A stretch of 64,000 bases of DNA from the IMG/VR virus record IMGVR_UViG_3300028833_000003, one strand, 5' to 3'. Origin of the DNA: a virus. Below are positions 38,972-55,418 of this stretch, piece after piece (the first letter of the stretch is position 1; each line of letters opens with the position of its first letter). Below the pieces are notes generated by a model. The model was not told the origin of the DNA. It searched no databases and saw nothing but the letters and a program-made list of their open reading frames with translations. A program made the translations under genes and the position numbers.

Positions 38972-40042
38972 TTAAGTCGCCTTCTTTCGGTTCTTAGCGT
39001 TGCGGCACTCCTTGCAGATAGAATACCATCCATCTTTTGAAGTGTTATTTACCGAAAAATAACGTTGATGTGCTAACTTAATTTGCCCACAGCGACTACA
39101 CCGCTTCCACTTGCCCTTTTCCACGAACGTATAGTGCCACATCAAAAATTCATCTTGGGCGTATTGCGCGATGAGTTTAGGGATTTTATTGCGCCATAAA
39201 GACGAGATATATTCAACTGAGTGGGTGGTGCCGAATTCTTTTTCTAGTTGCGCCTTAATTTCTTCATTGGAGAAGTAAGACATTTTACATTCAGCGATGC
39301 GGCGATACATAGGAAATTTATCAAGAGCCGCCGCATAATAGCGGTCGAAATCCTAGATGGTCGCCCACAGGTCAGTTTGCATATGATCCCAAACTTTATC
39401 TTTAATTTTGTGATAGTTGCACATAATTGCGGAAATAACTTTGTAGTCACATAAAGAAATACCGCTCCAGCGCACCCCTTTTGTCTAAGGGTCAATCCAC
39501 TCATCAAAGGGCAGCGTAATTGGGAACCGAGTGCCACTATTCACATTCGTAAATTTAATGGGCGTCTTGTATGCGTTTTTGATTAAATACTAATCTTTCC
39601 GCATCTCGATCAATGTGCGCTTAATGATGTAAGCGTCACGCCCAGTTGCGACTTTCTACTTGGCTTCCCAGCGCTTTATTCCTTCTCTAAGTTCGCGCAA
39701 GAACGGTATTGTATCTACGTCTTCCTGAGTTATCATTACTTTTGGTTGAAAAATTACATTTTTATTATTTTCTACTAATAAATTATATACACCATCTTCG
39801 CCGTTCTCAAATTGCCCGACCAACCCCTCAAATGAGGTTTCGCGTTTAGTTATAGTTGCCATGCGGTTCTCGGTGAGGAGGCGGCGCTATTTGCGTTCTT
39901 CTTTTTCCATACAGAGAACTAGGTAATCGGCCAATGCTTCAAGATACTGCGGAGTTGGGTCTTCCACTTCGGAGAGTATCTATTCAACTAATTTTAAACG
40001 CTCTTCTGGAGCTTCAATAGTATAGTCTAATTTTGTTGCCAT
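38972..40042 (-). CDS. first gene of the leftward operon: putative DNA-binding/regulatory protein with a C-terminal zinc ribbon (356 aa)
   Basis: ATG 40040-40042 lies 9 nt after GAAAGGAG. Six in-frame TAGs (39980, 39887, 39656, 39590, 39485, 39353). HTH-like segment NEEIKAQLEKEFGTTHSVEYISSLW, then CSRC...CKEC. Stop is TAA 38972-38974. Confidence 0.4.
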
Positions 40043-40067
40043 CCTATCAAACTCCTTTCATAGCTAC

Positions 40068-40096
40068 ATTATAGCAAAAATTTTTTGTAAAGTCAA
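40068..40096 (-). promoter_or_regulatory. sigma-70/A-type promoter of the leftward structural operon
   Basis: On the minus strand, TTGACT (40091-40096), a 17-nt spacer and TATAAT (40068-40073). Divergent from P1. Confidence 0.7.
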
Positions 40097-40104
40097 GTCC
40101 AGTA

Positions 40105-40133
40105 TTGACAGAACAAAAAAAATATGTTAAAAT
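40105..40133 (+). promoter_or_regulatory. promoter P1
   Basis: TTGACA, 17-nt spacer, TGt+TAAAAT. Confidence 0.7.
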
Positions 40134-40145
40134 AATATAAAGGAG

Positions 40146-40427
40146 ATGATAGCATTGGTTTGGTTATTTGTAATAATTGTCGCGCTGTTACTGCCGATTT
40201 GGTATAATACAATTCCTATACCGGATATGAATGAAGTGAATGTTGTATGGCATCAAAAATATATAGGCTGGACATGGTGCGACAAGGATAAAAATGAACA
40301 CCGCATTGGCCGATTGACTGCGTGGAAAATGTTATTAGATTATCCTGCTCGTTTGGTTGTATATACTTGGAACACAGACGATGATGATGAAGAAGATGAG
40401 GATGATAGGAATACTATTGAATTATAA
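40146..40427 (+). CDS. small membrane-anchored protein with an acidic C-terminal tail
   Basis: 93-codon ORF after P1. AAAGGAG abuts the ATG, so TTG 40155 is an alternative start. Hydrophobic N-terminus, D/E run at the C-terminus, TAA stop. Confidence 0.7.
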   Translation: MIALVWLFVIIVALLLPIWYNTIPIPDMNEVNVVWHQKYIGWTWCDKDKNEHRIGRLTAWKMLLDYPARLVVYTWNTDDDDEEDEDDRNTIEL

Positions 40428-40534
40428 GGAATGCTTTTTCTATTGTTTTCCCAAAAATATGGGGTGGTAAGAGGTTCCAGGCAAAAAAAATTTTTCACTT
40501 TAAAACCAATTAATTCCTGAAACATACGCCCCCC

Positions 40535-40610
40535 ATTTCATTCTCACGCCGGCGCGCCAGCGGCCATGGCGCGCCGAGTTTGCCTGTATTTTTACCCCAC
40601 AAAAAATTAA
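40535..40610. repeat. GC-rich intergenic element, copy E1
   Basis: GGCGCGCC...GGCGCGCC hairpin, then ...TTTGCC...ACCCCACAAAAAATT. Same layout as E2-E6. Confidence 0.5.
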
Positions 40611-40752
40611 TTGTCTATTGTCGCCTTTCTGGTAAATAGCGACGGTGCCCGAAACTTTGACCCCGAGAAAATGTATAAGTAGTGCATACTTATACATTTA
40701 TTTTGTATATAAAAAAAATTATGATACCCCAGAAAAATTTTTAAAAAAAGTA

Positions 40753-40781
40753 TTGACAATAGTAAATTGGTGTGCTATAAT
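40753..40781 (+). promoter_or_regulatory. promoter P2
   Basis: TTGACA, 17 nt, TGc+TATAAT, with an A/T tract upstream. Confidence 0.8.
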
Positions 40782-40811
40782 AAGTACATCAAGAGAAAGG
40801 AGCTAACCGCT

Positions 40812-41141
40812 ATGAAGAACAACGACTGGTGGTCCATCGCGTGCATTATTACATTAGTTATCATCACTGTTATTGTGAGCCTGGGTGTGGGCATGTCAAT
40901 CCAGAAAAGAGACATGGTAAATCGGCTTTACCCCAATGTGGCTTATGTGGTTGAGATAGACCGCGCAACAGATACCCTAACAGTGGAAGACTCAATAGGC
41001 CATCTGTGGAGCGTGCAAGGTGTAGAAGACTACATACTGGGCGACTTGGTAGGCATGGTCATGGACAGTATGGGCACAGACTTAGTGTATGATGATGAAG
41101 TGGTCAAGATGCACTATTGTGGAGGATGGAACGAAGTATAA
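40812..41141 (+). CDS. hypothetical membrane protein (109 aa)
   Basis: ATG lies 9 nt after AAGGAG. The ORF-track start 40767 lies inside P2. N-terminal TM helix. Confidence 0.8.
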   Translation: MKNNDWWSIACIITLVIITVIVSLGVGMSIQKRDMVNRLYPNVAYVVEIDRATDTLTVEDSIGHLWSVQGVEDYILGDLVGMVMDSMGTDLVYDDEVVKMHYCGGWNEV

Positions 41142-41163
41142 TAAAAAAATTTTTAAAAAAGTA

Positions 41164-41192
41164 TTGACATTAATATTCATTTGTGATATACT
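41164..41192 (+). promoter_or_regulatory. promoter P3
   Basis: TTGACA, 17 nt, TGa+TATACT. Confidence 0.75.
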
Positions 41193-41246
41193 TTAATCAA
41201 GGTAAGGGAAGTGCTTACCGGAAACAGTTAAGAGGAGGACATTACA

Positions 41247-41453
41247 ATGACAGTTTATCGCATGTTCGCTACCGAATACAATCATCGCTCCTGTGTCCGC
41301 ATCTTCAAGCCCGAACAGCTTCCAACTGTTAAGCCCTTCCTGCGTCGGTATTGTGCTGAAAGCGCACCAAATACCATTGTTGAACTTGTCAAGTATGTCA
41401 ATGGCAAAGCCGAAAAGTGTGTTTATAAGGTACAGAAACCTGGCAATAAATAA
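41247..41453 (+). CDS. hypothetical early protein (68 aa)
   Basis: AGAGGAGG RBS. The leader contains the hairpin GGTAAG/CTTACC. Confidence 0.8.
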   Translation: MTVYRMFATEYNHRSCVRIFKPEQLPTVKPFLRRYCAESAPNTIVELVKYVNGKAEKCVYKVQKPGNK

Positions 41454-41472
41454 AAAAAATTAAAAAAACCTA

Positions 41473-41501
41473 TTGACAAATCCCGAAACCCGTGTTATAA
41501 T
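41473..41501 (+). promoter_or_regulatory. promoter P4
   Basis: TTGACA, 17 nt, TGt+TATAAT. Confidence 0.8.
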
Positions 41502-41535
41502 GAGCATGTAAAAAGGAAACAGGGAGGACAAACAA

Positions 41536-41721
41536 ATGACTAACATCTTGACAATCATCTTCGTCGCTATCATCGCTTTTGAAGTCTTTGCGGTATCACC
41601 CTTTGGATTATACTTTGCATCAAAAGATTATGACAATGGCAAGCCGATGCGTGTGTTGATTGCGGCGTTTGTCCTTGCCATTCCAGCGATAGTCATTGCA
41701 GAAATTTTAGGAATAGCGTAA
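41536..41721 (+). CDS. small two-helix membrane protein (61 aa)
   Basis: GGGAGGA RBS and two hydrophobic segments. Confidence 0.75.
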   Translation: MTNILTIIFVAIIAFEVFAVSPFGLYFASKDYDNGKPMRVLIAAFVLAIPAIVIAEILGIA

Positions 41722-41729
41722 AAAAAGTA

Positions 41730-41758
41730 TTGACAAAAAGAACGTTGTGTGTTATAAT
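41730..41758 (+). promoter_or_regulatory. promoter P5
   Basis: TTGACA, 17 nt, TGt+TATAAT. Confidence 0.8.
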
Positions 41759-41788
41759 AAGACCATCAAGAGAGAGGAGACTAAGACA

Positions 41789-41989
41789 ATGATGTACGAA
41801 CTGGTTCTCACCTATGACGATGGAGCGATGAAGAAAGAAACTGCCAAACTGCCGAACCTGATGAGCGCATTGGGCATCTACATGGAGGACGACAGCTGGT
41901 GCTACGCACAGATAACGAACTGCCAGACTGGCGAGGTCATCGCCATCTGGGAGAACAACAGCGAGTATGGTGTCACAACTGCGGGCTGA
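41789..41989 (+). CDS. hypothetical early protein (66 aa)
   Basis: ATG follows GAGAGGAG. The ORF-track start 41747 lies inside P5. Confidence 0.75.
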   Translation: MMYELVLTYDDGAMKKETAKLPNLMSALGIYMEDDSWCYAQITNCQTGEVIAIWENNSEYGVTTAG

Positions 41990-41992
41990 CCG

Positions 41993-42095
41993 AAAGGCCA
42001 GCCTTTTTCCTTTCGCCGGCGCGCGCACGAACGTTTGCGCGCCGAATTCGCGCACAACTATACCCAGCACAATTCACGCGCCAAAAAGTGCAGAA
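41993..42095. repeat. GC-rich intergenic element, copy E2
   Basis: ...CGCCGGCGCGCGCACGAACGTTTGCGCGCC...ACCCAGCACAATT... Confidence 0.45.
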
Positions 42096-42125
42096 AAAAA
42101 ATTGCAAAAAATTTTCCTAAAACTA

Positions 42126-42154
42126 TTGACAAGCTCGGCACGGTATGCTATAAT
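42126..42154 (+). promoter_or_regulatory. promoter P6
   Basis: TTGACA, 17 nt, TGc+TATAAT. Confidence 0.8.
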
Positions 42155-42181
42155 AAGTACAACAAAGCAAGGGAGGACACG

Positions 42182-42493
42182 ATGATGATTAACATCCGCA
42201 CTATCCGCAAGCTGAGCAACAACGATGGGCTGACACTCAAAGCAGGTAAGGCTATCACATACAAAACAGGTTATCAGGTAGCAACAGAAGGCATGGAATG
42301 CACCACAGCAGAGCAGGCTATCAAAGCGGTTAAGCAGTACGGCGGAAACTGTGGCGTGTGGTTCTCTGATGGTGTGTATTACATTGACAAGAGCCACAGA
42401 GTAAGCACCAAGCGCGAAGCGCTCACAGTGGGCAAGGCACACAATCAAATCTCTGTGCTTAAATGGTCTAACATGAGTTTGATTTATTGCTAA
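42182..42493 (+). CDS. hypothetical early protein (103 aa)
   Basis: ATG follows AAGGGAGGA. The ORF-track start 42035 precedes the promoter. Confidence 0.75.
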   Translation: MMINIRTIRKLSNNDGLTLKAGKAITYKTGYQVATEGMECTTAEQAIKAVKQYGGNCGVWFSDGVYYIDKSHRVSTKREALTVGKAHNQISVLKWSNMSLIYC

Positions 42494-42511
42494 AAAAGTT
42501 TTAAAAAGTGC

Positions 42512-42540
42512 TTGACAACAACAGCCAAACGTGATATAAT
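42512..42540 (+). promoter_or_regulatory. promoter P7
   Basis: TTGACA, 17 nt, TGa+TATAAT. Confidence 0.8.
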
Positions 42541-42570
42541 TAAGCCATCAAAGAGAGGGAGGACGACACC

Positions 42571-42756
42571 ATGATGAAGCACAGCAGAGAGATGACCGCA
42601 GAACAGCACCTGATGATTCTGGAAGAGCGCTATGAGGTCAAGGTCAAGGGCACAACTATTATCGTTTATACTGATGAAGATGGAGAGACCACGCAGGTAG
42701 TGAAAGATTACATGGTGCATTTTTCGCGCAAGGGTTATAAAATAATTTACAAATAA
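42571..42756 (+). CDS. hypothetical early protein (61 aa)
   Basis: GAGGGAGGA RBS. Confidence 0.75.
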   Translation: MMKHSREMTAEQHLMILEERYEVKVKGTTIIVYTDEDGETTQVVKDYMVHFSRKGYKIIYK

Positions 42757-42759
42757 CCC

Positions 42760-42788
42760 TTGACAAATAGAACCAACGGTGCTATAAT
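42760..42788 (+). promoter_or_regulatory. promoter P8
   Basis: TTGACA, 17 nt, TGc+TATAAT. Confidence 0.8.
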
Positions 42789-42818
42789 AGAGACATCAAA
42801 AGACAGGGAGGCGAAACG

Positions 42819-42983
42819 ATGGCAAAGCGGTACGTAACTCGGCAGTATCTCTGGAATACATTCTACACTTGGGGAGTGTGGGATAAAAAAGAATGTAAAT
42901 GGATTGTTAATGATAGATTGTACAGAAGAAACGTCATAGAAATCGCTGACAAATTAAACAAAGAAGAACAAAAAAAGTATTGA
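42819..42983 (+). CDS. hypothetical early protein (54 aa, below the ORF-track cutoff)
   Basis: ATG follows CAGGGAGG. The TGA stop overlaps the -35 of P9. Confidence 0.65.
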   Translation: MAKRYVTRQYLWNTFYTWGVWDKKECKWIVNDRLYRRNVIEIADKLNKEEQKKY

Positions 42984-43008
42984 CAAATAACCGCGCGTAT
43001 GTTATAAT
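42980..43008 (+). promoter_or_regulatory. promoter P9
   Basis: TTGACA, 17 nt, TGt+TATAAT. Confidence 0.8.
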
Positions 43009-43037
43009 TGAGCCATCAAATGAAGGAGGTCATGCAG

Positions 43038-43247
43038 ATGACTGTTAAGGAACTGATGAAGAAGCTGGCAAAGATGGATCCTGAAATGAAAGTGTGCTTC
43101 CCTGATACTTATGAACAAAACGAAGGTTGGGGCCAATATCCTGAGTATTGCATTGTCGGCGGTGCCGAAGTGGAAGATGGGCGCGTGATGTTGTGGGCAG
43201 GTGAAGACACTGCACGCGAAGAAAAAGATAATGATGAAATCGAATAA
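43038..43247 (+). CDS. hypothetical early protein (69 aa)
   Basis: The second ATG lies 8 nt after GAAGGAGG. The ORF-track start 43008 lies in the -10. Confidence 0.75.
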   Translation: MTVKELMKKLAKMDPEMKVCFPDTYEQNEGWGQYPEYCIVGGAEVEDGRVMLWAGEDTAREEKDNDEIE

Positions 43248-43253
43248 AAAGTA

Positions 43254-43282
43254 TTGACAAATCCTAAAACCCGTGCTATAAT
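43254..43282 (+). promoter_or_regulatory. promoter P10
   Basis: TTGACA, 17 nt, TGc+TATAAT. Confidence 0.8.
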
Positions 43283-43311
43283 AAAAACATCAAATGAAGG
43301 GAGCCACAACA

Positions 43312-43482
43312 ATGAAGAAAGAAATCACTTACACTGAGCAGGAGCTAAAAAAGTGGTTCGAAGAAATGAAAAAGAAATATCCGCACTCGATGGCCGAAGA
43401 ACATTTTAGTTTTGTTGAAATGAACATGTTTGACCATCAATGGCACGAAGAAAATAATTTGAAAATAGTGCTTGACAAATAA
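43312..43482 (+). CDS. hypothetical early protein (56 aa)
   Basis: ATG follows GAAGGGAG. Confidence 0.7.
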   Translation: MKKEITYTEQELKKWFEEMKKKYPHSMAEEHFSFVEMNMFDHQWHEENNLKIVLDK

Positions 43483-43500
43483 TCAAACGTGTGCTATAAT
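43472..43500 (+). promoter_or_regulatory. promoter P11
   Basis: TTGACA, 17 nt, TGc+TATAAT. The -35 overlaps the end of the upstream CDS. Confidence 0.8.
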
Positions 43501-43529
43501 TAAACTATCAAATGAGGGAGGGCAAGGCA

Positions 43530-43754
43530 ATGAAGTTTTGGAAGAAAGAAAACAAAAAGGAAGAGGGATACAAAATTGCTTTTTGTGACACGCCTGATCT
43601 TTCAACTAAGTTTGGTGAATGGAAAGGAACTTTTGATAGTTATTCTTCGGCCGACCATTGCATCAGAATGGGATGGGGAAAAGCTATCAAATCAAAAGCA
43701 ACTGACGCATACGAAATTGATAGTGCATGGCTTGTTATCGAAAAAATTTCTTGA
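43530..43754 (+). CDS. hypothetical early protein (74 aa)
   Basis: ATG follows GAGGGAGGG. Confidence 0.75.
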   Translation: MKFWKKENKKEEGYKIAFCDTPDLSTKFGEWKGTFDSYSSADHCIRMGWGKAIKSKATDAYEIDSAWLVIEKIS

Positions 43755-43773
43755 AAATTTTTTCAAAAAAGGA

Positions 43774-43802
43774 TTGACAAACCCACCAGACCGTGTTATA
43801 AT
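43774..43802 (+). promoter_or_regulatory. promoter P12
   Basis: TTGACA, 17 nt, TGt+TATAAT. Confidence 0.8.
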
Positions 43803-43852
43803 AGAGACACAAAAGGGAAAGGAAAATCCCCAACACCAGAAAGGAAACTACA

Positions 43853-44071
43853 ATGACGAAGATCTACACCGTGGCTGTGATGAACCGCTTTGAGAATGAC
43901 CACACTGAAACCAAGTATTTCACCACCAAAGAAAAAGCCATCAAGTATGCGGAAAAGATCAACGCCAAATACGAAGAAGCAAGAGCTAACAAAAATTATT
44001 TCGAGATGGTCTATCATGTGGCGATGGACTGGGGCATCAAAGAGGTTATGGCCGATGAAGAAGAGGAATAA
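43853..44071 (+). CDS. hypothetical early protein (72 aa)
   Basis: Purine-rich 45-nt leader, GAAAGGAAA RBS. Confidence 0.7.
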   Translation: MTKIYTVAVMNRFENDHTETKYFTTKEKAIKYAEKINAKYEEARANKNYFEMVYHVAMDWGIKEVMADEEEE

Positions 44072-44099
44072 AAATCCTCTTCTTTTTTTCAAAAACCTA

Positions 44100-44128
44100 T
44101 TGACAAATCCCGAAACGTATGTTATAAT
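44100..44128 (+). promoter_or_regulatory. promoter P13
   Basis: TTGACA, 17 nt, TGt+TATAAT. Confidence 0.8.
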
Positions 44129-44157
44129 TAAGCCATCAAATGAAGGAGGACGAAACG

Positions 44158-44310
44158 ATGATGAAGGTTTATCTGGTCTGGTATTTCAACCCTGAGGTGA
44201 GCGAAAATCAGGCGATGCTGTGGGGACTTTACACCACGAAAGAGAAGGCCGAGAAAGCGCTGACTGAGTGCGGATTTCATGGATGGATTAATGAAGAGGT
44301 CGCGGAGTAA
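44158..44310 (+). CDS. hypothetical early protein (50 aa)
   Basis: ATG follows GAAGGAGGA. The TAA sits in the GTAA loop of hairpin 44301-44316. Confidence 0.65.
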   Translation: MMKVYLVWYFNPEVSENQAMLWGLYTTKEKAEKALTECGFHGWINEEVAE

Positions 44311-44378
44311 TCCGCGGCCCTTTGCTTTGGGCCGGTCGCGCGCGGGCGTGCGCGACCGGAGTTGGCCTGCGTAATAGT
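44311..44378. repeat. GC-rich intergenic element, copy E3
   Basis: ...GGCCGGTCGCGCGCGGGCGTGCGCGACCGG..., with a 9-bp stem CCGGTCGCG/CGCGACCGG. Confidence 0.5.
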
Positions 44379-44384
44379 CTTGTA

Positions 44385-44612
44385 ATAATTTTGTAACAAA
44401 TTCGTAACACTTTTGTAACAAAATTGTAATCCCGAAATTGTTACGAAAGTATTAAATTTTTATTACAAAAATTTAATACTTTTTTAATAATATTTAATAA
44501 TTATAAGAAAAGAATAAAAAATCGTGGAAAAATGCGATTTAACATAATCTTAATACTTTTGTAACACTTTTGTAACAAAAAAAGTGATTTTGTAACACTT
44601 TTTTAACAAAAA
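44385..44612. repeat. AT-rich GTAACA/TGTTAC box cluster 1
   Basis: Exact GTAACA at 44393, 44404, 44415, 44561, 44572 and 44592. TGTTAC at 44439. 14-bp perfect inverted repeat AGTATTAAATTTTT/AAAAATTTAATACT at 44448-44480. Confidence 0.8.
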
Positions 44613-44616
44613 ACGC

Positions 44617-44645
44617 TTGACAAGTGCCCGTGTAGGGTGTATAAT
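44617..44645 (+). promoter_or_regulatory. promoter P14
   Basis: TTGACA, 17 nt, TGt+ATAAT. Confidence 0.75.
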
Positions 44646-44694
44646 GAAGTCACAAAAGAGGTCAAGGACAGACCGAAAAACCAGAAGGGGCAAA

Positions 44695-45201
44695 ATGATG
44701 ATGAACCGGAATTACAATCCCGCGTGCGCGATGAACAGCCTGTCTTATATGGTTACCAAATACCACAAGCTCTCCGCGTCTCACATTTACTTCTTCGGTT
44801 TTGAGTTTAACGGCGCTGTTTATGCCTACACCAGCAAGAACCTGCCCCGTAAAGTCCTCCGCACTGAAAAGGCTTCCTCTAAGAACGGCGGTTTCCGGCA
44901 AGTCAAGTTCCGCCCCACTAAGTTCTGGAAGATGGACATGATCCTCTCCGGCAAAGCTATCAAGGTCGCTGATATGGCCGACTTTATGGCTCTTGCTCCT
45001 AAGAACAAGGGTTGCAAGTTTGAAATGTGGGTAACTGAAACCTACACCAGCGAAAAGTGGGTCAAGGATAGCGTCCGGTTTGACAAGGCTGGCGATGTGG
45101 TCATCAACGGCGAAAACGTCCAGGTCAAGTTTGAAGGCGCCGAAGTCATCAACGAACGTTCTCTCCGCAATGCTTACTATGATGCGATGGGGCTGGCCTA
45201 A
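44695..45201 (+). CDS. hypothetical early protein (168 aa)
   Basis: ATG follows GAAGGGG. The ORF-track start 44617 lies in the -35. The TAA lies in the loop of hairpin 45186-45209. Confidence 0.7.
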   Translation: MMMNRNYNPACAMNSLSYMVTKYHKLSASHIYFFGFEFNGAVYAYTSKNLPRKVLRTEKASSKNGGFRQVKFRPTKFWKMDMILSGKAIKVADMADFMALAPKNKGCKFEMWVTETYTSEKWVKDSVRFDKAGDVVINGENVQVKFEGAEVINERSLRNAYYDAMGLA

Positions 45202-45237
45202 GCCCCATCCATCCCGGGCCCTATATGAAAAAAACTA

Positions 45238-45266
45238 TTGACAAAATCCAAATTATATGATATAAT
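45238..45266 (+). promoter_or_regulatory. promoter P15
   Basis: TTGACA, 17 nt, TGa+TATAAT. Confidence 0.8.
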
Positions 45267-45298
45267 CCAAATGTACCAAGAGAAAGGAAGTAATGAGA

Positions 45299-45736: not shown

Positions 45737-45780
45737 AGCACTCCCAAACCCGGGCGCGAAAAAAAATTTTTAAAAACCTA

Positions 45781-45809: not shown

Positions 45810-45868
45810 AATAACTGTCAAGAGGACGAGGGCGCGTCCCTGAGAGAAAAAAATCTCTTCAAACCCTC

Positions 45869-48544: not shown

Positions 48545-48694
48545 ATGGCGAACAAGAGCAAAAGCAAAGTCAAGAATAGCTATGAAATCAACAAAGGCAT
48601 TCGGCGCGATTGGGGCAACATCAACCCTGTTACAAAAATCATACCAGACAAGCGCAACAAGAAACCTAAGCACAAAAAAAATTGGGAAGAGTGA
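48545..48694 (+). CDS. small basic protein (49 aa, below the ORF-track cutoff)
   Basis: ATG follows GAAAGGAG. K/R-rich. TGA stop. Confidence 0.6.
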   Translation: MANKSKSKVKNSYEINKGIRRDWGNINPVTKIIPDKRNKKPKHKKNWEE

Positions 48695-48704
48695 TACACA
48701 CCTA

Positions 48705-48733
48705 TTGACAAATTTAAAAAAATGTGATATAAT
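48705..48733 (+). promoter_or_regulatory. promoter P24
   Basis: TTGACA, 17 nt, TGa+TATAAT. Confidence 0.8.
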
Positions 48734-48765
48734 AATTATAGAAAATCAGAAAGGAAGTGTGCGTA

Positions 48766-49215
48766 ATGGCAAAGCAACAGCGGCAACCCACTCCACCTAC
48801 CAGAGAATGGATTGATGAATGGATTGACAAGTATTTGGAAGAGCATCCAAATGAAATCATTGAAGATTTCCAAGGGCTGGAAGATCAAGCTGACTATGAG
48901 TGGTGGTGCAAAGAGATTGACGCAGGACGCCCCACACCTTACGACTTGACCAAAGAGCAAGAAAAGGAAAGCCACAAAGCAAGAGTAACGCCTGGCGGAA
49001 GTGGCAAGCCCAAGGCAAACACTGAGCGCAAGCGCAAGCCCAATGACACAAAGAGAACCATTATCGGCTGGGTTCAAACCTTGTTTGAAGGTTTCGCTCT
49101 TAATGACAAAGTGGCTAATGTGATTGTCTCCAATGTTGAAAGGTCAATAGATTTTGAAATGGATGGCAAGCATTATACATTGAGCCTGACAGAGCATCGC
49201 CCACCTAAAAAGTGA
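48766..49215 (+). CDS. early protein, family B paralog 1 of 2 (149 aa)
   Basis: Shares EQAD(Y/C)EW..K..DAG....YDLTKEQEKE..KA...RKRKP and the C-terminal ...HRPPK with 53968..54396. Confidence 0.7.
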   Translation: MAKQQRQPTPPTREWIDEWIDKYLEEHPNEIIEDFQGLEDQADYEWWCKEIDAGRPTPYDLTKEQEKESHKARVTPGGSGKPKANTERKRKPNDTKRTIIGWVQTLFEGFALNDKVANVIVSNVERSIDFEMDGKHYTLSLTEHRPPKK

Positions 49216-49262
49216 GCGGTGCTTTTTTTCGGCCCGGGCCAAAAATTTTTTTCGCAAACCTA

Positions 49263-49291
49263 TTGACAAACCTCTTTCAGAGTGCTATAAT
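49263..49291 (+). promoter_or_regulatory. promoter P25 (sole promoter for the five genes 49328-50495)
   Basis: TTGACA, 17 nt, TGc+TATAAT. Leader hairpin GTTCCAAGGGAAC at 49298-49310. Confidence 0.8.
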
Positions 49292-49327
49292 AACATTGTT
49301 CCAAGGGAACAGAAAGGAAGTAAAATT

Positions 49328-49564
49328 ATGAAACCTATCAAAATTGCTGGCACTGTCTTTGATGCTGATGCACTTTCTATTGAAGCAATTGATGCGTTAA
49401 TTGAAAAACTTGAAGAAGCAAAATGCACACAACGCCGCAAAAAGGCAGAAGAATACGCAGAGAAAATTCATAACTTAATTATCGAAGCAAAACAGCAAGA
49501 TTTAAATGTGATGATTGACAATGAATGGATCCCTGATGATTTCAGAGTTGATGTTTATATCTGA
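49328..49564 (+). CDS. hypothetical early protein (78 aa)
   Basis: GAAAGGAAG RBS. Confidence 0.7.
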   Translation: MKPIKIAGTVFDADALSIEAIDALIEKLEEAKCTQRRKKAEEYAEKIHNLIIEAKQQDLNVMIDNEWIPDDFRVDVYI

Positions 49565-49599
49565 TAATACAAATAAGCAATAGAAAGGAAATAAAAGCA

Positions 49600-49815
49600 A
49601 TGTATAAAACAACTTGGATGATCACTGATGAAAGTGATGAAGGCACATTCCAGACAGAGCTGACCTTGTATCATTTTGGCAAGCGTCCCAAGTTCCCTCG
49701 CTGGTACATGGGAGAAAATCATTCTTATCAGATTGAAATGATTTGGAATTTCCATCTGATTGTTCGCCCTTCTATTTTCTTTAAATGCCTGACCCATCAA
49801 TACATTATCAGATGA
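49600..49815 (+). CDS. hypothetical early protein (71 aa)
   Basis: GAAAGGAAA RBS. Confidence 0.6.
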   Translation: MYKTTWMITDESDEGTFQTELTLYHFGKRPKFPRWYMGENHSYQIEMIWNFHLIVRPSIFFKCLTHQYIIR

Positions 49816-49830
49816 AAGGAAGTATCCACA

Positions 49831-50115
49831 ATGAGAGACGCGAAAAAAGGAACTTATAATGATAGTTATACTTATTGCCCTGTTAATGCGTATGGAGATT
49901 GTCCTTACTGTGACCAAAGTGATGTATGCCACATCGATGATCCTCTCAAAGATTGCGATGACTGGGGCGCGTTTTGGGAGAGCTGGGAAGACTGGCTAAA
50001 CGCTGATGATGCAAACCCTGATGCACCAGAGGATTTTGCGGAAGATGAAATCCGCTGGGCTGGTGATGTGTATGGCTATGAAGATACAATGGAGGACAAC
50101 AATGAATACTTATGA
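49831..50115 (+). CDS. very acidic, Trp-rich small protein with an N-terminal Cys cluster (94 aa)
   Basis: GAAAGGAAG RBS. CPxxxxxxCPYC...C...C, followed by a D/E/W-rich tail. Confidence 0.7.
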   Translation: MRDAKKGTYNDSYTYCPVNAYGDCPYCDQSDVCHIDDPLKDCDDWGAFWESWEDWLNADDANPDAPEDFAEDEIRWAGDVYGYEDTMEDNNEYL

Positions 50116-50275
50116 AATCATGATTAATTATCTTAACTATGTATTTCCAAACAGAAAATTTAGTAAAGAATATTTAGACATCCTTTACGCTATCTTTATA
50201 AAGGGATATGGCGAAGGCGAACTCGCGGGAGAAATTGAAGCAAATAAATATTGGAGCGAAAGGAAAGAAAAATAA
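50102..50275 (+). CDS. hypothetical early protein (57 aa)
   Basis: ATG lies 5 nt after GGAGGA and overlaps the upstream gene by 14 nt. Confidence 0.5.
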   Translation: MNTYEIMINYLNYVFPNRKFSKEYLDILYAIFIKGYGEGELAGEIEANKYWSERKEK

Positions 50276-50279
50276 ATAA

Positions 50280-50495
50280 ATGTATAATTATAATAATGAC
50301 CCATTTGCGAAGGGCACACAAAAATATCAACAAGAGATAGTCGCAAAAGCATTAAATGACCATTTGCTCAAATGTGTTAAAAATAGTTATTGGTGCGCTC
50401 ATTGCTCTCTAAATCATAGTGGCATCTGCTTTTTTGCAAAAGAATGTTTTGAGAATGATCGAAAATATTATAGAGAAGATGATGAGGAGGAATAA
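50280..50495 (+). CDS. Cys-rich small protein (71 aa)
   Basis: ORF with a weak AAGGAAAG RBS and an acidic C-terminus. Confidence 0.55.
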   Translation: MYNYNNDPFAKGTQKYQQEIVAKALNDHLLKCVKNSYWCAHCSLNHSGICFFAKECFENDRKYYREDDEEE

Positions 50496-50535
50496 ACTTC
50501 TCATTTTGCCCGGGCCAAAAAATTTCAAAAAAGTA

Positions 50536-50564
50536 TTGACAAGCTGAAACAAATGCTGTATAAT
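50536..50564 (+). promoter_or_regulatory. promoter P26
   Basis: TTGACA, 17 nt, TGt+ATAAT. The leader GTAATCAAGAGGAGGTAATCAA is nearly identical to that of P27. Confidence 0.8.
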
Positions 50565-50593
50565 AGCTATGTAATCAAGAGGAGGTAATCAAG

Positions 50594-50746
50594 ATGAAGA
50601 CTTTGAAGGTGCTGGCTGTGATTGGTTGCTTACTGACTATCTGGGGTCTGGTGTGGGGTATCTTCATCAAAGATTTCATTTGGGGTGCGTTTGTTGGTCT
50701 GGCGCTAATAATGCCTTATCTGGTTTGGGGAGATGAGGAAGAATGA
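50594..50746 (+). CDS. small membrane protein (50 aa)
   Basis: AGAGGAGG RBS. Two hydrophobic segments. TGA overlaps the next ATG (ATGA). Confidence 0.65.
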   Translation: MKTLKVLAVIGCLLTIWGLVWGIFIKDFIWGAFVGLALIMPYLVWGDEEE

Positions 50747-50901
50747 AAAGAAGTCTTTACAAGCGTTATGATGATTTAGCCTGCTGGGATTTGGACAAAG
50801 GATGTAGGCGCATCATTGACCAGTCTCGACCTGGTAGGCGTCGCCTGAAAAAGGTTCTTCGGCGTCAAGCGCGCAAGCGGTTAAATCAGCGGGAAGAATA
50901 A
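50743..50901 (+). CDS. small Arg/Lys-rich protein (52 aa)
   Basis: ATGA-coupled to the upstream gene. Confidence 0.5.
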   Translation: MKRSLYKRYDDLACWDLDKGCRRIIDQSRPGRRRLKKVLRRQARKRLNQREE

Positions 50902-50933
50902 CCGCCCGGGCGAAAAAAATTTCTAAAAAGCTA

Positions 50934-50962
50934 TTGACAACCTATCAAGATGGTGCTATAAT
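50934..50962 (+). promoter_or_regulatory. promoter P27
   Basis: TTGACA, 17 nt, TGc+TATAAT. Confidence 0.8.
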
Positions 50963-50991
50963 AAGCATGTAATCAAGAGGAGGTAATCAAA

Positions 50992-51507
50992 ATGACTAAG
51001 AACACTTACGAAGCTCGCGCCTATAAGTTCGCCACTTTCCTTGCTCGTCTGTTTGCTGGTTGCTCTTCTCTGGAAGATTTCATGTGGGCGCTGGACTATT
51101 ACAACGCTACGCACTCTCGCAAACTGCGCTGGGCGCATGGTGTTTCTCGCATTGCGATTATCCGCTCTGACTATGTTATCAAGTTTAACATGGTGCCTGA
51201 TGAAGAATGGGAAGATGGTCGCGCTGGCAACTGCGAAAGCGAAGAAGCGGTCTATGAGCGCGCCTGCGAAGATGGCTTTGAGTATCTGCTGGCTAAAACC
51301 ACTGTTTGCACCATCGAAGAACACACTTTCTCTATCATGCCTCGCATTAACCATGTGAATGATTGGACACGCGACTGGACAGAGTATTGCACTGATGAAG
51401 AATATAACTGGCTGGTGCAAAATGTGAATGACTTGCATGAAGGTAATGTGGGATACAGAAATCGAAAAGTGTGCGTAATCGACTACGCCTGGGACGCGGA
51501 AATGTAA
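50992..51507 (+). CDS. atypical protein-kinase-like early protein (171 aa)
   Basis: Contains DLHEGNVG....VCVIDYA, which looks like a DxHxGN catalytic loop plus a DFG-like IDY, and an upstream VIKF Lys. The TAA lies in a hairpin loop (51496-51512). Confidence 0.4.
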   Translation: MTKNTYEARAYKFATFLARLFAGCSSLEDFMWALDYYNATHSRKLRWAHGVSRIAIIRSDYVIKFNMVPDEEWEDGRAGNCESEEAVYERACEDGFEYLLAKTTVCTIEEHTFSIMPRINHVNDWTRDWTEYCTDEEYNWLVQNVNDLHEGNVGYRNRKVCVIDYAWDAEM

Positions 51508-51595
51508 TCCGCGCCCTTTTGCGTTCGACCGCGCGCTGCCGGATGTGGCGCGCGGCATTTGCCCCACAGCATACCCCACACAATTTTCGGCGCGA
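51508..51595. repeat. GC-rich intergenic element, copy E5
   Basis: ...CGACCGCGCGCTGCCGGATGTGGCGCGCGGCATTTGCCCCACAGCATACCCCACACAATTTT... Confidence 0.5.
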
Positions 51596-51637
51596 AAAAA
51601 AGTTCAAAAAAAACTTCAAAAAAATTCCTAAAACCTA

Positions 51638-51666
51638 TTGACAAGACCAGCGAAAGCGAGTATAAT
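51638..51666 (+). promoter_or_regulatory. promoter P28, with no credible ORF behind it
   Basis: TTGACA, 17 nt, TATAAT. The transcript would start AATAACTGTCAGGAGGG, the same 5' end as P16. About 100 nt before P29. Confidence 0.6.
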
Positions 51667-51768
51667 AATAACTGTCAGGAGGGCAAGAGAACATCCTCTC
51701 CCCTGATGGCACTGGCAAGGACGCTCTGACAAGATGCGGAAACTTCAAAAAAAAGTTTGAAAAACCCC

Positions 51769-51797
51769 TTGACAAAGCGCTGAAAGTGTGATACAAT
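51769..51797 (+). promoter_or_regulatory. promoter P29
   Basis: TTGACA, 17 nt, TGa+TACAAT. Confidence 0.75.
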
Positions 51798-51856
51798 AAG
51801 GATGTCAAATGAAGGGGAGCTGATAAACCCCACAAACAGAGAAAGAGGTAGATACC

Positions 51857-52240
51857 ATGATGAACACCAAGATGACTAACAAGAGCGCTCTGTCCTTTGT
51901 CCTGACCAACTGCGAAGTGCCTGCGGATGTCAAGGAGCGTCTGGAAGCGATGCTGGCTTCCCTTGAAAAGCGTTCTGAGAACGCCAAGGGCAAGGAGCGC
52001 AAGCTGTCTCCCAAGCAGGAGCAGGAGCGCAAGGAGCGTGAGGAGTTCCGCTCCAAGGTGTATGAGACTATGTGTGAGAACCTGAACTTCGAATACACCT
52101 GCAAGGGTCTGGCTGACCTGTTCGCTGTCTCTTCTCCCAAGATGGCGAACGCTCTGACCAAGCTGGTTGAAGCTGGCAAGGTTGAGCGTCTGGTTTCCAC
52201 CACCAACAAGTCCAAGGTGTGGTTCAAGGTGGTAGCGTAA
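51857..52240 (+). CDS. winged-helix-like early protein, paralog 3 of 4 (127 aa)
   Basis: Divergent copy (…LEKRSENAKGKERKLSPKQEQE…SSPKMANALTKL…). The TAA lies in the GTAA loop of the 9-bp hairpin 52228-52249. Confidence 0.7.
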   Translation: MMNTKMTNKSALSFVLTNCEVPADVKERLEAMLASLEKRSENAKGKERKLSPKQEQERKEREEFRSKVYETMCENLNFEYTCKGLADLFAVSSPKMANALTKLVEAGKVERLVSTTNKSKVWFKVVA

Positions 52241-52297
52241 GCTACCACCGCCCCACCTGGGGCGCGCCGGGGCCGAAAAAAAATTTTTAAAAACCTA

Positions 52298-52326
52298 TTG
52301 ACAAAGCTTTAAAACCGCTGTATAAT
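52298..52326 (+). promoter_or_regulatory. promoter P30
   Basis: TTGACA, 17 nt, TGt+ATAAT. Confidence 0.8.
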
Positions 52327-52372
52327 AAACATGTTCCAAGTGAGAACAAAAGAAAGAAAGGATTTGATAACA

Positions 52373-53029
52373 ATGGCTTCTAAGTATAATGACATTTTTG
52401 GTGATACTGAGACGCTGGGTCCGCTGGATAGCCCCATCATTTACAATGGTTACATGCATTGCAGGGAAACAGATGAAGAAGTAAATGCACTGATTAATGA
52501 ATATTTCTTCAACCTTGAAAAATTCGCCACAGCGTATTATGCAAACAAGCGTCCGCAATATTTGGACGATTTGTGGGACAGCAAAATCTTTGCTGAAAAT
52601 TTTTGGGACTTCCGCAAAAAAGTGCTTGCCATGCTCAACCCCAATAAAAAGAACAGATTTTTCGCTCACAATGCGAGATTTGATGTTATGGCATTGAATA
52701 ACACTTGCAGAGCGTTAAGCGATGGAAAAGTGAAATATTTCTTCCCCTATGAAGTTGAAGTTTGTGATACTCTCAAAATGGCGCGTCAAGTTGTCGCAAA
52801 AATGCCCACCTACATCAAATACTGTCAAGAGAATGGATACATGACCAAGCACAAGACGCCCAGGGTTCGCCTGACCGCTGAAATTCTTTACAGATTTATT
52901 ACAAAAGATGAAGAATTTAATGAAGAGCACAGAGGGAAAGAAGATGTTCTGATCGAAGAAAAAATTTATGACTACATCAAGAGACAGCATAAAAAGTGCA
53001 ATCCTGCGCTCTACGCCCGCAAGGCATGA
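52373..53029 (+). CDS. DnaQ-like DEDDh 3'-5' exonuclease (218 aa)
   Basis: ExoI GDTETLG, ExoII FFAHNARFDV and ExoIII EHRGKEDV (H-x4-D). ATG follows GAAAGGA. Confidence 0.55.
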   Translation: MASKYNDIFGDTETLGPLDSPIIYNGYMHCRETDEEVNALINEYFFNLEKFATAYYANKRPQYLDDLWDSKIFAENFWDFRKKVLAMLNPNKKNRFFAHNARFDVMALNNTCRALSDGKVKYFFPYEVEVCDTLKMARQVVAKMPTYIKYCQENGYMTKHKTPRVRLTAEILYRFITKDEEFNEEHRGKEDVLIEEKIYDYIKRQHKKCNPALYARKA

Positions 53030-53081
53030 GCGCAGGCGGCCCGGGCCGAAAATTGTATACAAAAAAAATTTCAAAAACCTA

Positions 53082-53110
53082 TTGACAAGAACCTGAATCA
53101 GCAGTATAAT
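53082..53110 (+). promoter_or_regulatory. promoter P31, with no credible ORF behind it
   Basis: TTGACA, 17 nt, TATAAT. The transcript would start with hairpin GTCCC/GGGAC. About 130 nt before P32. Confidence 0.6.
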
Positions 53111-53239
53111 ATAAGTGTCCCAAGGGGCAAGGGACAGTCAAGGCCAGGTTGCCGAAAGTCAACAGAGACAATACGCATGGACTACAGAAACATTTGGCCA
53201 TTAGCAAACACAATGTGCGAAAAAAGTTTGCGAAACCCC

Positions 53240-53268
53240 TTGACAAAGCCCACAACCTGTGGTATAAT
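53240..53268 (+). promoter_or_regulatory. promoter P32, with no credible ORF behind it
   Basis: TTGACA, 17 nt, TGg+TATAAT. About 120 nt before P33, with no ATG after the AAAGGAAAGGGG. Confidence 0.6.
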
Positions 53269-53391
53269 GCAAATGTAAGATAAAGGAAAGGGGAAAAATA
53301 AAAAGCCACCCCAATCCCAATGCGCAAAAATGCAAGGCTTTGCTTCCATGTGCTTCTTACAAAGTCAAGAAATAAAAAATAAAAAAAGTTC

Positions 53392-53420
53392 TTGACAAAC
53401 ACCACAAAGCATGATATAAT
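53392..53420 (+). promoter_or_regulatory. promoter P33
   Basis: TTGACA, 17 nt, TGa+TATAAT. Leader hairpin TGTTCCAAGAGAACA at 53426-53440. Confidence 0.8.
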
Positions 53421-53468
53421 AAAGATGTTCCAAGAGAACAAAAGGAAAAAAAGAAAGAGGTAATGAAA

Positions 53469-53858
53469 ATGACTAACATCACCAAGAACATGAAGTACGC
53501 TGACATCCTCTCCATCCTGCATGGCGAAAATCCTGCCTATGGTTGCTCCATCGAAACTCTGACCGCTTTCATCGAACATGAAATGGAACTGACCGCGAAA
53601 AAGAACGCGGCTCCCAAGAAGCCTTCCAAGGCTCAGGTGGAGAAGCAGGAGGAGAACAAGGTTCTCGCTCAGACGCTGTTTGAAGTCCTCGCGGCTCATG
53701 GTAAGGATGTAAGCGTCGCGGAAATCAAGAAACTGGATGATCGCTTTGTGGATCTGTCCTCTCCCAAAATCACTGCGCTGTTGAAAATCCTGATGGATGA
53801 AAACCGCATGGTCAAAGATGATAGCGGAAGGGTGGCAAGGTATCAGGTTCTCGCCTGA
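53469..53858 (+). CDS. winged-helix-like early protein, paralog 4 of 4 (129 aa)
   Basis: The second ATG lies 8 nt after AGAGG. Close paralog of 47412..47777. Confidence 0.75.
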   Translation: MTNITKNMKYADILSILHGENPAYGCSIETLTAFIEHEMELTAKKNAAPKKPSKAQVEKQEENKVLAQTLFEVLAAHGKDVSVAEIKKLDDRFVDLSSPKITALLKILMDENRMVKDDSGRVARYQVLA

Positions 53859-53910
53859 TACCTCCGCCCCTCGCGGGCCCGGGCGCGAAAAAAACATTTT
53901 CAAAAAGGTA

Positions 53911-53939
53911 TTGACAAGCTGATTGCAAGGTGCTATAAT
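53911..53939 (+). promoter_or_regulatory. promoter P34
   Basis: TTGACA, 17 nt, TGc+TATAAT. Confidence 0.8.
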
Positions 53940-53967
53940 AGAACCATCGAAAGGAGCTGATGACAGT

Positions 53968-54396
53968 ATGACGAAGGAACAGTACATTGAACAGTATCTC
54001 GATGAGTATGAGCGCAAGCACCCTGATGAACGAATTGATTATGAAAAGTTGCGTGAGCAGGCTGACTGTGAATGGTATGACAAGCAGGTAGATGCAGGCA
54101 AGAAGACTGAATACGATTTGACCAAGGAGCAAGAGAAGGAAGCCAAGAAGGCTCGACAGTATGCCAAGTCTGACAAGGAGCGCAAGAAGGTTGTGCGGGA
54201 GCGCAAGCCTGATGAGGACAAGCGCGAAATCATCGAAGTCATTGCACAGAATTTGAAGCGCGTTTGTACTGAGGATGACCAAATGGCAAAGGAAATCACT
54301 GTTGTAAATCCTGAGCGTGAAGTCACCTTTATTTTGCGGGGCGTTGAATACAGCGTCCAGGTTATCAAGCATAGACCGCCCAAGGCCCCTCAGTGA
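53968..54396 (+). CDS. early protein, family B paralog 2 of 2 (142 aa)
   Basis: ATG follows GAAAGGAG. The TGA lies within hairpin 54384-54402. Confidence 0.7.
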   Translation: MTKEQYIEQYLDEYERKHPDERIDYEKLREQADCEWYDKQVDAGKKTEYDLTKEQEKEAKKARQYAKSDKERKKVVRERKPDEDKREIIEVIAQNLKRVCTEDDQMAKEITVVNPEREVTFILRGVEYSVQVIKHRPPKAPQ

Positions 54397-54432
54397 GGGG
54401 CCGCCCGGGCGAAAAAAAATTTTTAAAAAGTA

Positions 54433-54461
54433 TTGACAAGTGCGCGAATGGATGCTATAAT
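54433..54461 (+). promoter_or_regulatory. promoter P35
   Basis: TTGACA, 17 nt, TGc+TATAAT. Leader hairpin at 54467-54484. Confidence 0.8.
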
Positions 54462-54500
54462 AATGGTGTTCCAAGAGAGAACAGAAAGGGCTGATAAAGA

Positions 54501-54731
54501 ATGTGTGATTGTGTAGCAAGTGCAATGTTAAATGATTACGAGCGACAAGCATGGACCTTTATCGAAAAGGGAACCCGCATCATTAAACTTTGCACAGAAT
54601 TAAGACAATTAAATTGTAACAAAGAAACTGTTGATTTTGCTTTGGTGTGGTTAGAACGCTCAAAGAAAACTCCTGAGGAAATTATTCAAATGGTCAAGCT
54701 CTATCACAAAGATTTGGAGGATGAAAAATGA
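54501..54731 (+). CDS. hypothetical early protein (76 aa)
   Basis: GAAAGGG RBS. ATGA overlap with the next gene. Confidence 0.7.
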   Translation: MCDCVASAMLNDYERQAWTFIEKGTRIIKLCTELRQLNCNKETVDFALVWLERSKKTPEEIIQMVKLYHKDLEDEK

Positions 54732-54937
54732 ATATTGTGGCGCGTGGGTATAGCATTTCACTGAACAAAGAGGAAGAAAATTTTACAAACAAGATAGTCG
54801 ATTTTGTTGATAAGCTGGAAAAGGAAATCTTTGAAGCTGGTGCATTACCTCCTGATGATTTGCAAACAGTTTTTGATGCTTTAAGAGATAACGCCTGCAA
54901 GCTCAGAGACAATGAATTTTATGATGAAGGAGAATAA
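54728..54937 (+). CDS. hypothetical early protein (69 aa)
   Basis: Translationally coupled (ATGA). A GGAGGA lies inside the upstream gene. Confidence 0.65.
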   Translation: MNIVARGYSISLNKEEENFTNKIVDFVDKLEKEIFEAGALPPDDLQTVFDALRDNACKLRDNEFYDEGE

Positions 54938-54945
54938 AAAAAGTA

Positions 54946-54974
54946 TTGACAATCCTTCCCACCTGTGTTATAAT
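54946..54974 (+). promoter_or_regulatory. promoter P36
   Basis: TTGACA, 17 nt, TGt+TATAAT. Leader hairpin at 54980-54996. Confidence 0.8.
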
Positions 54975-55016
54975 GAACATGTTCCAAGAGAGAACAAAAG
55001 AAAGGAAAGATAAACT

Positions 55017-55217
55017 ATGAATGAAGAGCGTTGCCCATATTGCCAATCTGAAAACTTCATCACTGATGATTATGAAGAAGATTATGCCGAACAGGATAAA
55101 ATCACCTTGTACTGGAAATGCAAATGCAACAACTGCGGTAAAGAATTTCACATCCAAGAATGGTACAAGTTACAGCGCAAAACCATCTCGACCGCGGAAC
55201 AGTGGGAGGAAGAATAA
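55017..55217 (+). CDS. zinc-ribbon small protein (66 aa)
   Basis: CPYC...CNNC. GAAAGGAAAG RBS. Confidence 0.7.
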   Translation: MNEERCPYCQSENFITDDYEEDYAEQDKITLYWKCKCNNCGKEFHIQEWYKLQRKTISTAEQWEEE

Positions 55218-55418
55218 ATGACTATCCAGCGTCGCATTGTATTAGATGATGAAGAACAGAACCTGATTACTCAGGTGGATGATTTGATTACTCAGGTTTA
55301 TAATGAATTAGATTCCTCTGATAAGGAGGGCCTCAAAAAGATAATGGCTTTAACAAATGCGTTAGCCGATTTCGCCTATGATTATGGGTCTGATGACTAT
55401 CGAAGTGGGTGCCTGTGA
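55218..55418 (+). CDS. hypothetical acidic early protein (66 aa)
   Basis: ATG directly follows the upstream TAA. A GGGAGGA lies in the upstream gene. Confidence 0.65.
   Translation: MTIQRRIVLDDEEQNLITQVDDLITQVYNELDSSDKEGLKKIMALTNALADFAYDYGSDDYRSGCL

Follow-up and report, generated by a model that had tools for sequence, protein, structure and literature searches.

The two divergent gene blocks described here lie in a 64,000-nt stretch of viral DNA (IMG/VR virus record IMGVR_UViG_3300028833_000003; G+C 37%), hereafter the window, in which a rightward block of 37 small genes is free of the codon TAG and a leftward operon of 19 genes for virion and packaging proteins is rich in it. The capsid protein matches verbatim on a 168,974-bp contig (ena:ERZ27257202:k141_292341), and a locus of this source contig (L086) is identical to the window across 12,635 nt. 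Since the contig ends share a 141-nt overlap, which equals the assembler's k-mer size, the genome is circular or circularly permuted, and the window covers ∼38% of its ∼169 kb. By sequence, the phage is a siphovirus of Firmicutes in the group of SPbeta, Enterococcus phage EF1 and phAss-1: the precomputed Pfam families of the source contig form an SPbeta-type virion module in conserved order (YonG_N, YonD_N, YonB, YomW, YomV, YomU_Tube, YomO and the tape measure), and the large terminase subunit (TerL) is 43–48% identical to those of phAss-1, Geobacillus E3 and Enterococcus phages EF1, H1 and VRE9. A megablast search of INPHARED with 15 kb of the window returned no match. In IMG/VR we found at least 133 related loci, and the relatives long enough for judging are a mix of standard-code and recoded genomes.

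Under the standard code the minus-strand interval 40–40042 is broken up; with TAA and TGA as the only stops it resolves into 19 contiguous genes and the open reading frame (ORF) total is doubled, and the source contig's own gene calls agree with this read-through of TAG. In standard-code homologues, glutamine occupies 82 of the 209 positions aligned to TAG (39%, against a 4% background), and no tyrosine or tryptophan signal is seen at these 209 positions. TAG is, as these alignments indicate, a sense codon read as glutamine (code 15). Over the 91 kb of the genome that we read, it ends none of the 98 genes examined. TAG is reassigned genome-wide, rather than the code being partitioned by block as the original prediction for this locus had put it, and its avoidance scales with the presumed earliness of translation. 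The phage group was already known to contain TAG-recoded members (Babkin et al. 2023, PMC10607447).

A gene caller based on Shine–Dalgarno (SD) sequences places 37 genes on the plus strand between 40100 and 55450, of which 21 stop at TAA, 16 at TGA and none at TAG, and its calls are unchanged whether TAG is treated as stop or sense. This bears out the original prediction that the 37 rightward genes hold no in-frame TAG and no TAG stop and can be translated with or without TAG suppression, except that the block was said to begin at ATG 40146, where TTG 40155 is the likelier start of the first gene because the SD abuts 40146. At late density 61 TAG would be expected among the block's 3,583 codons and none is found (Poisson P ∼2e-27), glutamine being encoded by 100 CAA or CAG codons and no TAG. 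The absence of TAG stops is weaker evidence when taken alone because relatives seldom use TAG for early stops: its share in standard-code relatives is ∼8% (14/179), which gives a probability of ∼0.05 for 0 of 37.

The leftward block, in contrast, has 219 TAG among its 12,789 codons (1.71%; 19 minus-strand genes). Its first two genes carry exactly the six and ten TAG that had been counted, and with the first of them at codons 21 and 52 of the leading gene (the others at 129, 151, 186 and 230), the leftward genes do need amber suppression. The further description of the operon as TAG-saturated fits the block as a whole and not every gene, since 4 of the 19 are TAG-free (25977–27059, 30879–31934, 31955–32704 and 32726–34063). 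These encode the tail tube, the capsid, a 249-aa (amino acid) protein and a YonD-like, scaffold-like protein; they favour CAG over CAA, and their counterparts in relatives are also TAG-poor. A third set of 42 plus-strand genes, which we call the class II module after its promoters, has 25 TAG among 7,467 codons, carried by 12 of the genes, and none of the 42 ends in TAG. The TAG share of glutamine-type codons is accordingly graded, from 0% in the early block (class I) through 10% in the class II module to 32% in the virion operon. Relatives contain 0–6 TAG per ∼10 kb early versus 25–51 late, so that the recoded codon is avoided early and enriched late both here and among them. The early block also differs in the G+C content of third codon positions (GC3; 0.50 versus 0.22 in the late block) and has strong SDs; the GC3 gap recurs in standard-code relatives, but is smaller there.

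The original prediction held that the window contains neither a suppressor tRNA nor a release-factor gene, and this agrees with our searches: ARAGORN calls no tRNA gene in the 64 kb, and no release-factor family turned up among the larger ORFs scanned. Elsewhere in the genome, where the prediction had pointed, a suppressor tRNA is encoded under a host-type promoter. A tRNA array starts 6.4 kb beyond the window's right end and runs across the contig junction (33 tRNA genes in total), and a 93-nt tRNA(CUA) gene with the anticodon CTA lies on the same contig and the same strand as the early block (L106 2196–2288), ∼17.5 kb beyond the right end of the window and ∼26 kb downstream of the early block. 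Its first base comes directly after the stop of a TAG-free gene for 112 aa (L106 1857–2195), the genes immediately flanking it are TAG-free, and the 112-aa gene is preceded at L106 1791 by the promoter TTGATT-17-TGaTATAAT, followed by ATATATGTAAGATAAA. In a 96%-identical relative (L104) the gene, the tRNA(CTA) and the promoter are arranged in the same way, and the anticodon loop reads CTCTAAA. The promoter is of class II, which combines a weak -35 element (TTGAAA or TTGATT), a 17-nt spacer, the extended -10 element TGnTATAAT and the conserved initial transcribed sequence ATATATGTAAG(G/A)T. Eleven such promoters lie within 32 kb rightward of the early block, including those ahead of the suppressor tRNA and of the tRNA arrays, which are outside the window; they also occur in relatives, including one from the human gut (L094), and their conserved transcribed sequence suggests a dedicated regulator. 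The tRNA regions of relatives, sought in IMG/VR by single-protein anchors, were not recovered, and exact-pattern scans of Joint Genome Institute (JGI) metagenomes and IMG/VR returned nothing.

Because the phage encodes its own tRNA(CUA), it is very unlikely, indeed scarcely credible, that the host natively reads TAG as glutamine, in which case the distribution of TAG would have no temporal aspect. Such a host is also at odds with the complete avoidance of TAG by the early genes, with the standard code of close relatives and with the standard-code hosts of published recoded phages. From the early-gene avoidance and the phage-borne tRNA we infer a standard-code host. In such a host, virion and packaging proteins cannot be made full-length until tRNA(CUA) is present, so that late synthesis depends on suppression, and the early proteins and the transcription unit of tRNA(CUA) itself are independent of it.

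The promoter that heads the leftward operon was predicted as TTGACT-17-TATAAT at 40068–40096, and we find it there on the minus strand with a TGn extension. Running from 40096 to 40068, it stands 25 nt upstream of the ATG at 40042, which has a GGAG SD, and its hexamers, 17-nt spacer, TGn, position upstream of a gene and conservation are those of a host sigma-A/sigma-70-type promoter. It scores 11/12, a quality for which base composition predicts ∼0.6 sites per strand per 64 kb, and it is without the A-tract UP-like consensus of the early promoters; calling it equally good was therefore slightly generous. In 33 of 37 relatives, recoded and standard-code, a promoter of 10–12/12 lies 20–60 nt upstream of the homologous gene, and in the cultured, standard-code Enterococcus phage H1 the same gene is preceded by a TG-extended, perfect 12/12 promoter. 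Since it is found in relatives of both codes, the arrangement is ancestral and not an adaptation to recoding, and the consensus promoter followed directly by TAG-laden genes loses the special standing that the original prediction gave it. Across 30 homologues of the leading gene, TAG falls in 34 different alignment columns, mostly columns of conserved glutamine and none of them universal, and the TAG density of the gene is ordinary for late genes.

These results bear on the model first proposed for the locus, in which the host-type promoter drives the leftward operon constitutively and late expression is timed primarily by the amber codons of the leading genes. In its favour, the promoter is conserved and close to consensus, no terminator was seen from there to the capsid gene, and TAG is met within the first gene at the early codons given above; all promoter classes seen look host-type, the suppressor tRNA is encoded apart from the operon and does not itself depend on TAG, and a phage polymerase or late-promoter motif was not found in the 91 kb. 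However, standard-code relatives, which have no such gate, share the promoter and the gene arrangement, no TAG position of the leading gene is conserved, and its TAG density is not raised. The capsid, scaffold-like and tube genes of the same operon are moreover TAG-free and have their own SDs. Since these genes and that of the 249-aa protein lack TAG, a gate acting by translation alone would let through the products made in greatest amount. We therefore think it unlikely that TAG is the primary timer; the dependence of late genes on suppression stands, as does the statement that such a gate had been proposed before for recoded phages.

At the other extreme, transcription could account for late timing entirely, whether by repression, by competition between promoters, by a phage factor or by a polymerase of YonO type, and TAG could have drifted into post-suppressor genes as a passive by-product. 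SPbeta offers a precedent, because its late operon is both transcribed and timed by its own polymerase YonO, which starts at a dedicated site (Forrest et al. 2017, PMC5467207), and the virion module here is SPbeta-like. The scattered TAG positions, the architecture common to recoded and standard-code relatives, and the early/late split in codon usage that standard-code relatives also show count in favour of such drift. Yet neither a YonO homologue nor a late-promoter motif was found in the 91 kb, and total TAG avoidance across the early codons speaks for strong selection tied to the decoding state; with selection against early TAG, mistimed late mRNAs inevitably become untranslatable. We regard a purely passive origin as improbable, if the most credible of the alternatives.

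The reading that we favour, at a probability of roughly 55%, lies between these models: the uneven distribution of TAG would be mainly the footprint of selection, with TAG serving as a backstop and not as the primary timer. Expression would proceed from class I to class II to the late operon. Early genes of host-takeover type would be read before the suppressor appears, the phage tRNA(CUA) from its class II unit would then supply TAG decoding, and TAG would be tolerated only in genes translated after suppressor expression and purged where output must be maximal, leaving it as a backstop against premature synthesis of late proteins. Dependence on suppression would thereby be layered on an older transcription programme without replacing it, because the promoter of the leading gene predates recoding, the TAG-bearing glutamine positions are not conserved, and the highest-copy proteins avoid TAG. 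Several points weigh against this reading. Promoter activity, class order and timing are all deduced from sequence, and the ∼77 kb beyond the 91 kb that we read could encode a release factor, an RF1 antagonist or an RNA polymerase of YonO type. All three promoter types look host-type; if they are, the early and late phases may not be kept apart by transcription on its own, and translation would have a larger role. In addition, TAG is already present in some of the class II genes that lie upstream of the suppressor tRNA.

The leading gene could connect translation to transcription if, as the original prediction suggested, it encoded a regulator. The sole positive for a sigma label is a match to PHROG 5767, 'sigma factor' (E 2e-47). 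No Pfam family was found at E < 0.01, a profile of the gene found nothing relevant among PDB sequences, and an AlphaFold model (predicted local distance difference test, pLDDT, 77) had no fold match in the PDB (best E 0.5); in BFVD, the model retrieved only homologues and zinc-ribbon proteins. The gene has 6,528 homologues, and of the 120 listed, none is named for a function and a single one comes with a precomputed Pfam family. Assignment to the sigma-70 family, with its regions 2 and 4, was not confirmed, as Pfam, PDB sequences and PDB folds all gave it no support, and 'regulator-like' is left with the PHROG label. As modelled, the product is a conserved helical protein with a C-terminal zinc ribbon, for which a regulatory role is possible. 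Were it a late-transcription factor, its TAG codons from codon 21 on would make late transcription conditional on the code switch. We consider this unlikely, less probable than either timing model above; if true, it would form a relay from suppressor-tRNA expression to the transcription programme, built on an ancestral regulator gene driven by a host promoter. Early-like codon usage of the leading gene was rejected as support for such a checkpoint, since its GC3 is 0.46 in the window, yet 0.16–0.32 (late-like) in homologues.

Much of this is familiar from other recoded phages. Block-wise code use and its timing hypothesis have been described by Borges et al. (bioRxiv 10.1101/2021.08.26.457843), in Mgcod (bioRxiv 10.1101/2022.06.29.495998) and by Peters et al. 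(PMC9523058), and in the 'code change' cassette of Borges et al. (bioRxiv 10.1101/2021.08.26.457843) the genes around the suppressor tRNA are likewise TAG-free. Like crAss-like, Lak, Agate and other recoded phages, the genome reads TAG as glutamine, with early genes readable in the host code and recoded structural genes; the suppressor tRNA in a standard-code context, the close relationship of standard-code and recoded genomes and the proposed timing of late translation are further likenesses to the crAss-like, Lak and Agate phages. It differs from these in lineage, being one of the large SPbeta-like siphoviruses of Firmicutes, and in that its promoters are directly readable. Its capsid and tail-tube genes avoid TAG, whereas the crAss lineage of Borges et al. 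preferentially recodes a tail-tube family. With phAss-1 and the proposed Phassvirus group (PMC10607447; OQ749652) the phage shares a TerL of 43% identity, TAG as glutamine, large tRNA arrays and an 88–93-nt tRNA(CUA) with a long variable arm and a near-identical anticodon arm, the anticodon and long variable arms of the L104 copy closely matching one phAss-1 suppressor. The two differ in genus and synteny, phAss-1 has three suppressor genes where one is seen here, and the phAss-1 paper (PMC10607447) is without promoter or timing analysis. With SPbeta, the phage shares a homologous virion module (YonG, YonF, YonD, YonB, YomU and others) laid out as one long operon; SPbeta uses the standard code and YonO, whereas here a host-type promoter heads the operon and YonO was not found in the 91 kb.

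Earlier publications thus cover code use by blocks, early genes in the standard code, suppressor tRNAs that sit in standard-code surroundings, the hypothesis of translational timing, and recoding in this group. What we add is the promoter anatomy with its three types, the graded use of TAG, the place of the suppressor tRNA in the genome together with its transcription unit, and the greater age of the head-of-operon promoter relative to recoding. A single genome in which promoters, TAG gradient and suppressor-tRNA unit are all legible from sequence is a well-resolved example and leaves the concept unchanged. Since standard-code relatives, some of them cultured, have the same architecture, the family is a reasonable place for testing recoding as a timer of late translation.

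The features of the window are collected in Table 1. The 31 exact consensus promoters of the early block, with their A-tract UP-like elements, are far more striking than the single leftward promoter; base composition predicts ∼0.02 exact sites. Five further early-block promoters score 11/12, and all of these early-block sites lie on the plus strand (40105–54974). When aligned, the early promoters have in common an upstream A-tract, TTGACAA, mostly a TGn, and one of two conserved 5′ leaders. Nearly every small early gene has, on these predictions, a host-type promoter of maximal quality to itself, together with a strong SD and in many cases a terminator. Recoded and standard-code relatives have comparable arrays, and so does Enterococcus phage H1. 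Early modules for host takeover that are rich in strong promoters are known from the terminal-redundancy genes of SPO1 and from the early promoters of T4 and T5. The block resembles such modules in general features, namely densely packed small genes that each have a host-type promoter and an SD of great strength, though here 31 exact 12/12 matches with UP-like tracts fall within 14 kb. The array could serve as a sink for host RNA polymerase.

Table 1. Positions of genes, promoters and other elements in the 64,000-nt window
Feature	Position	Strand	Remarks
Two large tail proteins, 1,089 aa (27 TAG) and 2,216 aa (36 TAG)	40..10259	-	
Tape-measure protein, 4,508 aa, 99 TAG	10343..23869	-	
Internal host-type promoter in late block, TTGACA-17-TGgTATATT	24634..24662	-	
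YomU tail-tube protein, TAG-free	25977..27059	-	
Three TAG-free head genes: YonD_N (445 aa), 249-aa protein, YonB major capsid	30879..34063	-	
Portal protein, 4 TAG	34076..35635	-	
Endonuclease-like small ORF, 118 aa, with TAG codons	35692–36048	-	between terminase and portal genes
Terminase large subunit, YonF-like, 5 TAG	36052..37788	-	
YonG_N-family protein, 389 aa, 10 TAG	37800..38969	-	
Leading leftward gene, 356 aa, 6 TAG	38972..40042	-	predicted conserved helical protein, C-terminal zinc ribbon
Leftward promoter, TTGACT-17-TGcTATAAT	40068..40096	-	conserved in relatives of both codes
Rightward promoter of first early gene, TTGACA-17-TAAAAT with TGn	40105..40133	+	back-to-back with leftward promoter
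Immediate-early-type block, 37 small genes	40155..55418	+	SD-based gene calls; no in-frame TAG; stops TAA/TGA only
Promoter array, 31 perfect TTGACA-17-TATAAT (12/12)	40753..54974	+	consensus scan; ∼1 per 460 bp
Promoter units with no ORF of ≥35 aa behind	45781–46012, 47235–47331, 51638–51768, 53082–53391	+	
5′ leaders with hairpin	after promoters at 46013, 47235, 49263, 52298, 53392, 54433, 54946	+	
Terminator, 14-bp stem, closing early block	55403..55434	+	
Other class II sites	57922, 59262	-	also loci L098 and L106
208-aa protein, 7 TAG, weak winged helix-turn-helix matches	58193..58819	-	leftward unit under class-II-like promoter at 59262
First rightward class II promoter in window, TTGAAA-17-TATAAT + ATATATGTAAG	62091..62130 (62114)	+	

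At least seven early units carry a conserved leader hairpin, GTTCC-AAG(R)G-(A)GAAC, directly after the -10 element, and other early units have CATCAA(A/G)nGAnGGAGG in common; these conserved 5′ leaders may be regulatory or processing sites. The four promoter units that lack an ORF are candidate phage small RNAs, and AATAACTGTCArGAGG opens two of them. Several ATGs lie 11 nt past the -10 element, and leaderless early mRNAs were rejected because the true starts follow an SD a few codons on. Between the two blocks, the leftward and rightward promoters stand back-to-back (40068–40133) with their -35 hexamers 8 bp apart, and the spacer of the leftward promoter contains the near-palindrome CAAAAATTTTTTG, which could be an operator.

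Like the Tyr, Leu and Ser tRNAs of bacteria, the suppressor tRNA carries a long variable arm, and tRNA-Tyr is absent from the set of 33. The L104 copy has a mismatched 1–72 pair and G73, which presumably fit glutamine charging by the identity rules of E. coli. In L104 a PTH2 peptidyl-tRNA hydrolase gene (10287–10721) sits between tRNA-Gln(TTG) and tRNA-Thr, beside the suppressor tRNA, and is absent at the equivalent place in the source genome. A 155-nt element ∼6.7 kb past the window's right end (L086 19326–19480), next to a tRNA-Thr, resembles a tRNA in its acceptor stem, T arm, CCA end and long variable hairpin. Its anticodon region is longer by ∼60 nt, and ARAGORN recognizes it as a tRNA only if an intron is forced. 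As a candidate suppressor it was rejected, having no CTA anticodon loop and no Rfam match.

In the late operon, the small endonuclease-like ORF beside the terminase gene recalls EF1, whose terminase region harbours an HNH homing endonuclease. The tape measure was considered as a possible carrier of an RNA-polymerase domain, like that of P23-45, and the idea was set aside when a PDB sequence search found nothing. The tape-measure protein has a Gly/Lys run and repeated ∼40-aa TITFQGEFGTYT units, and its predicted length of 4,508 aa would imply a very long tail.

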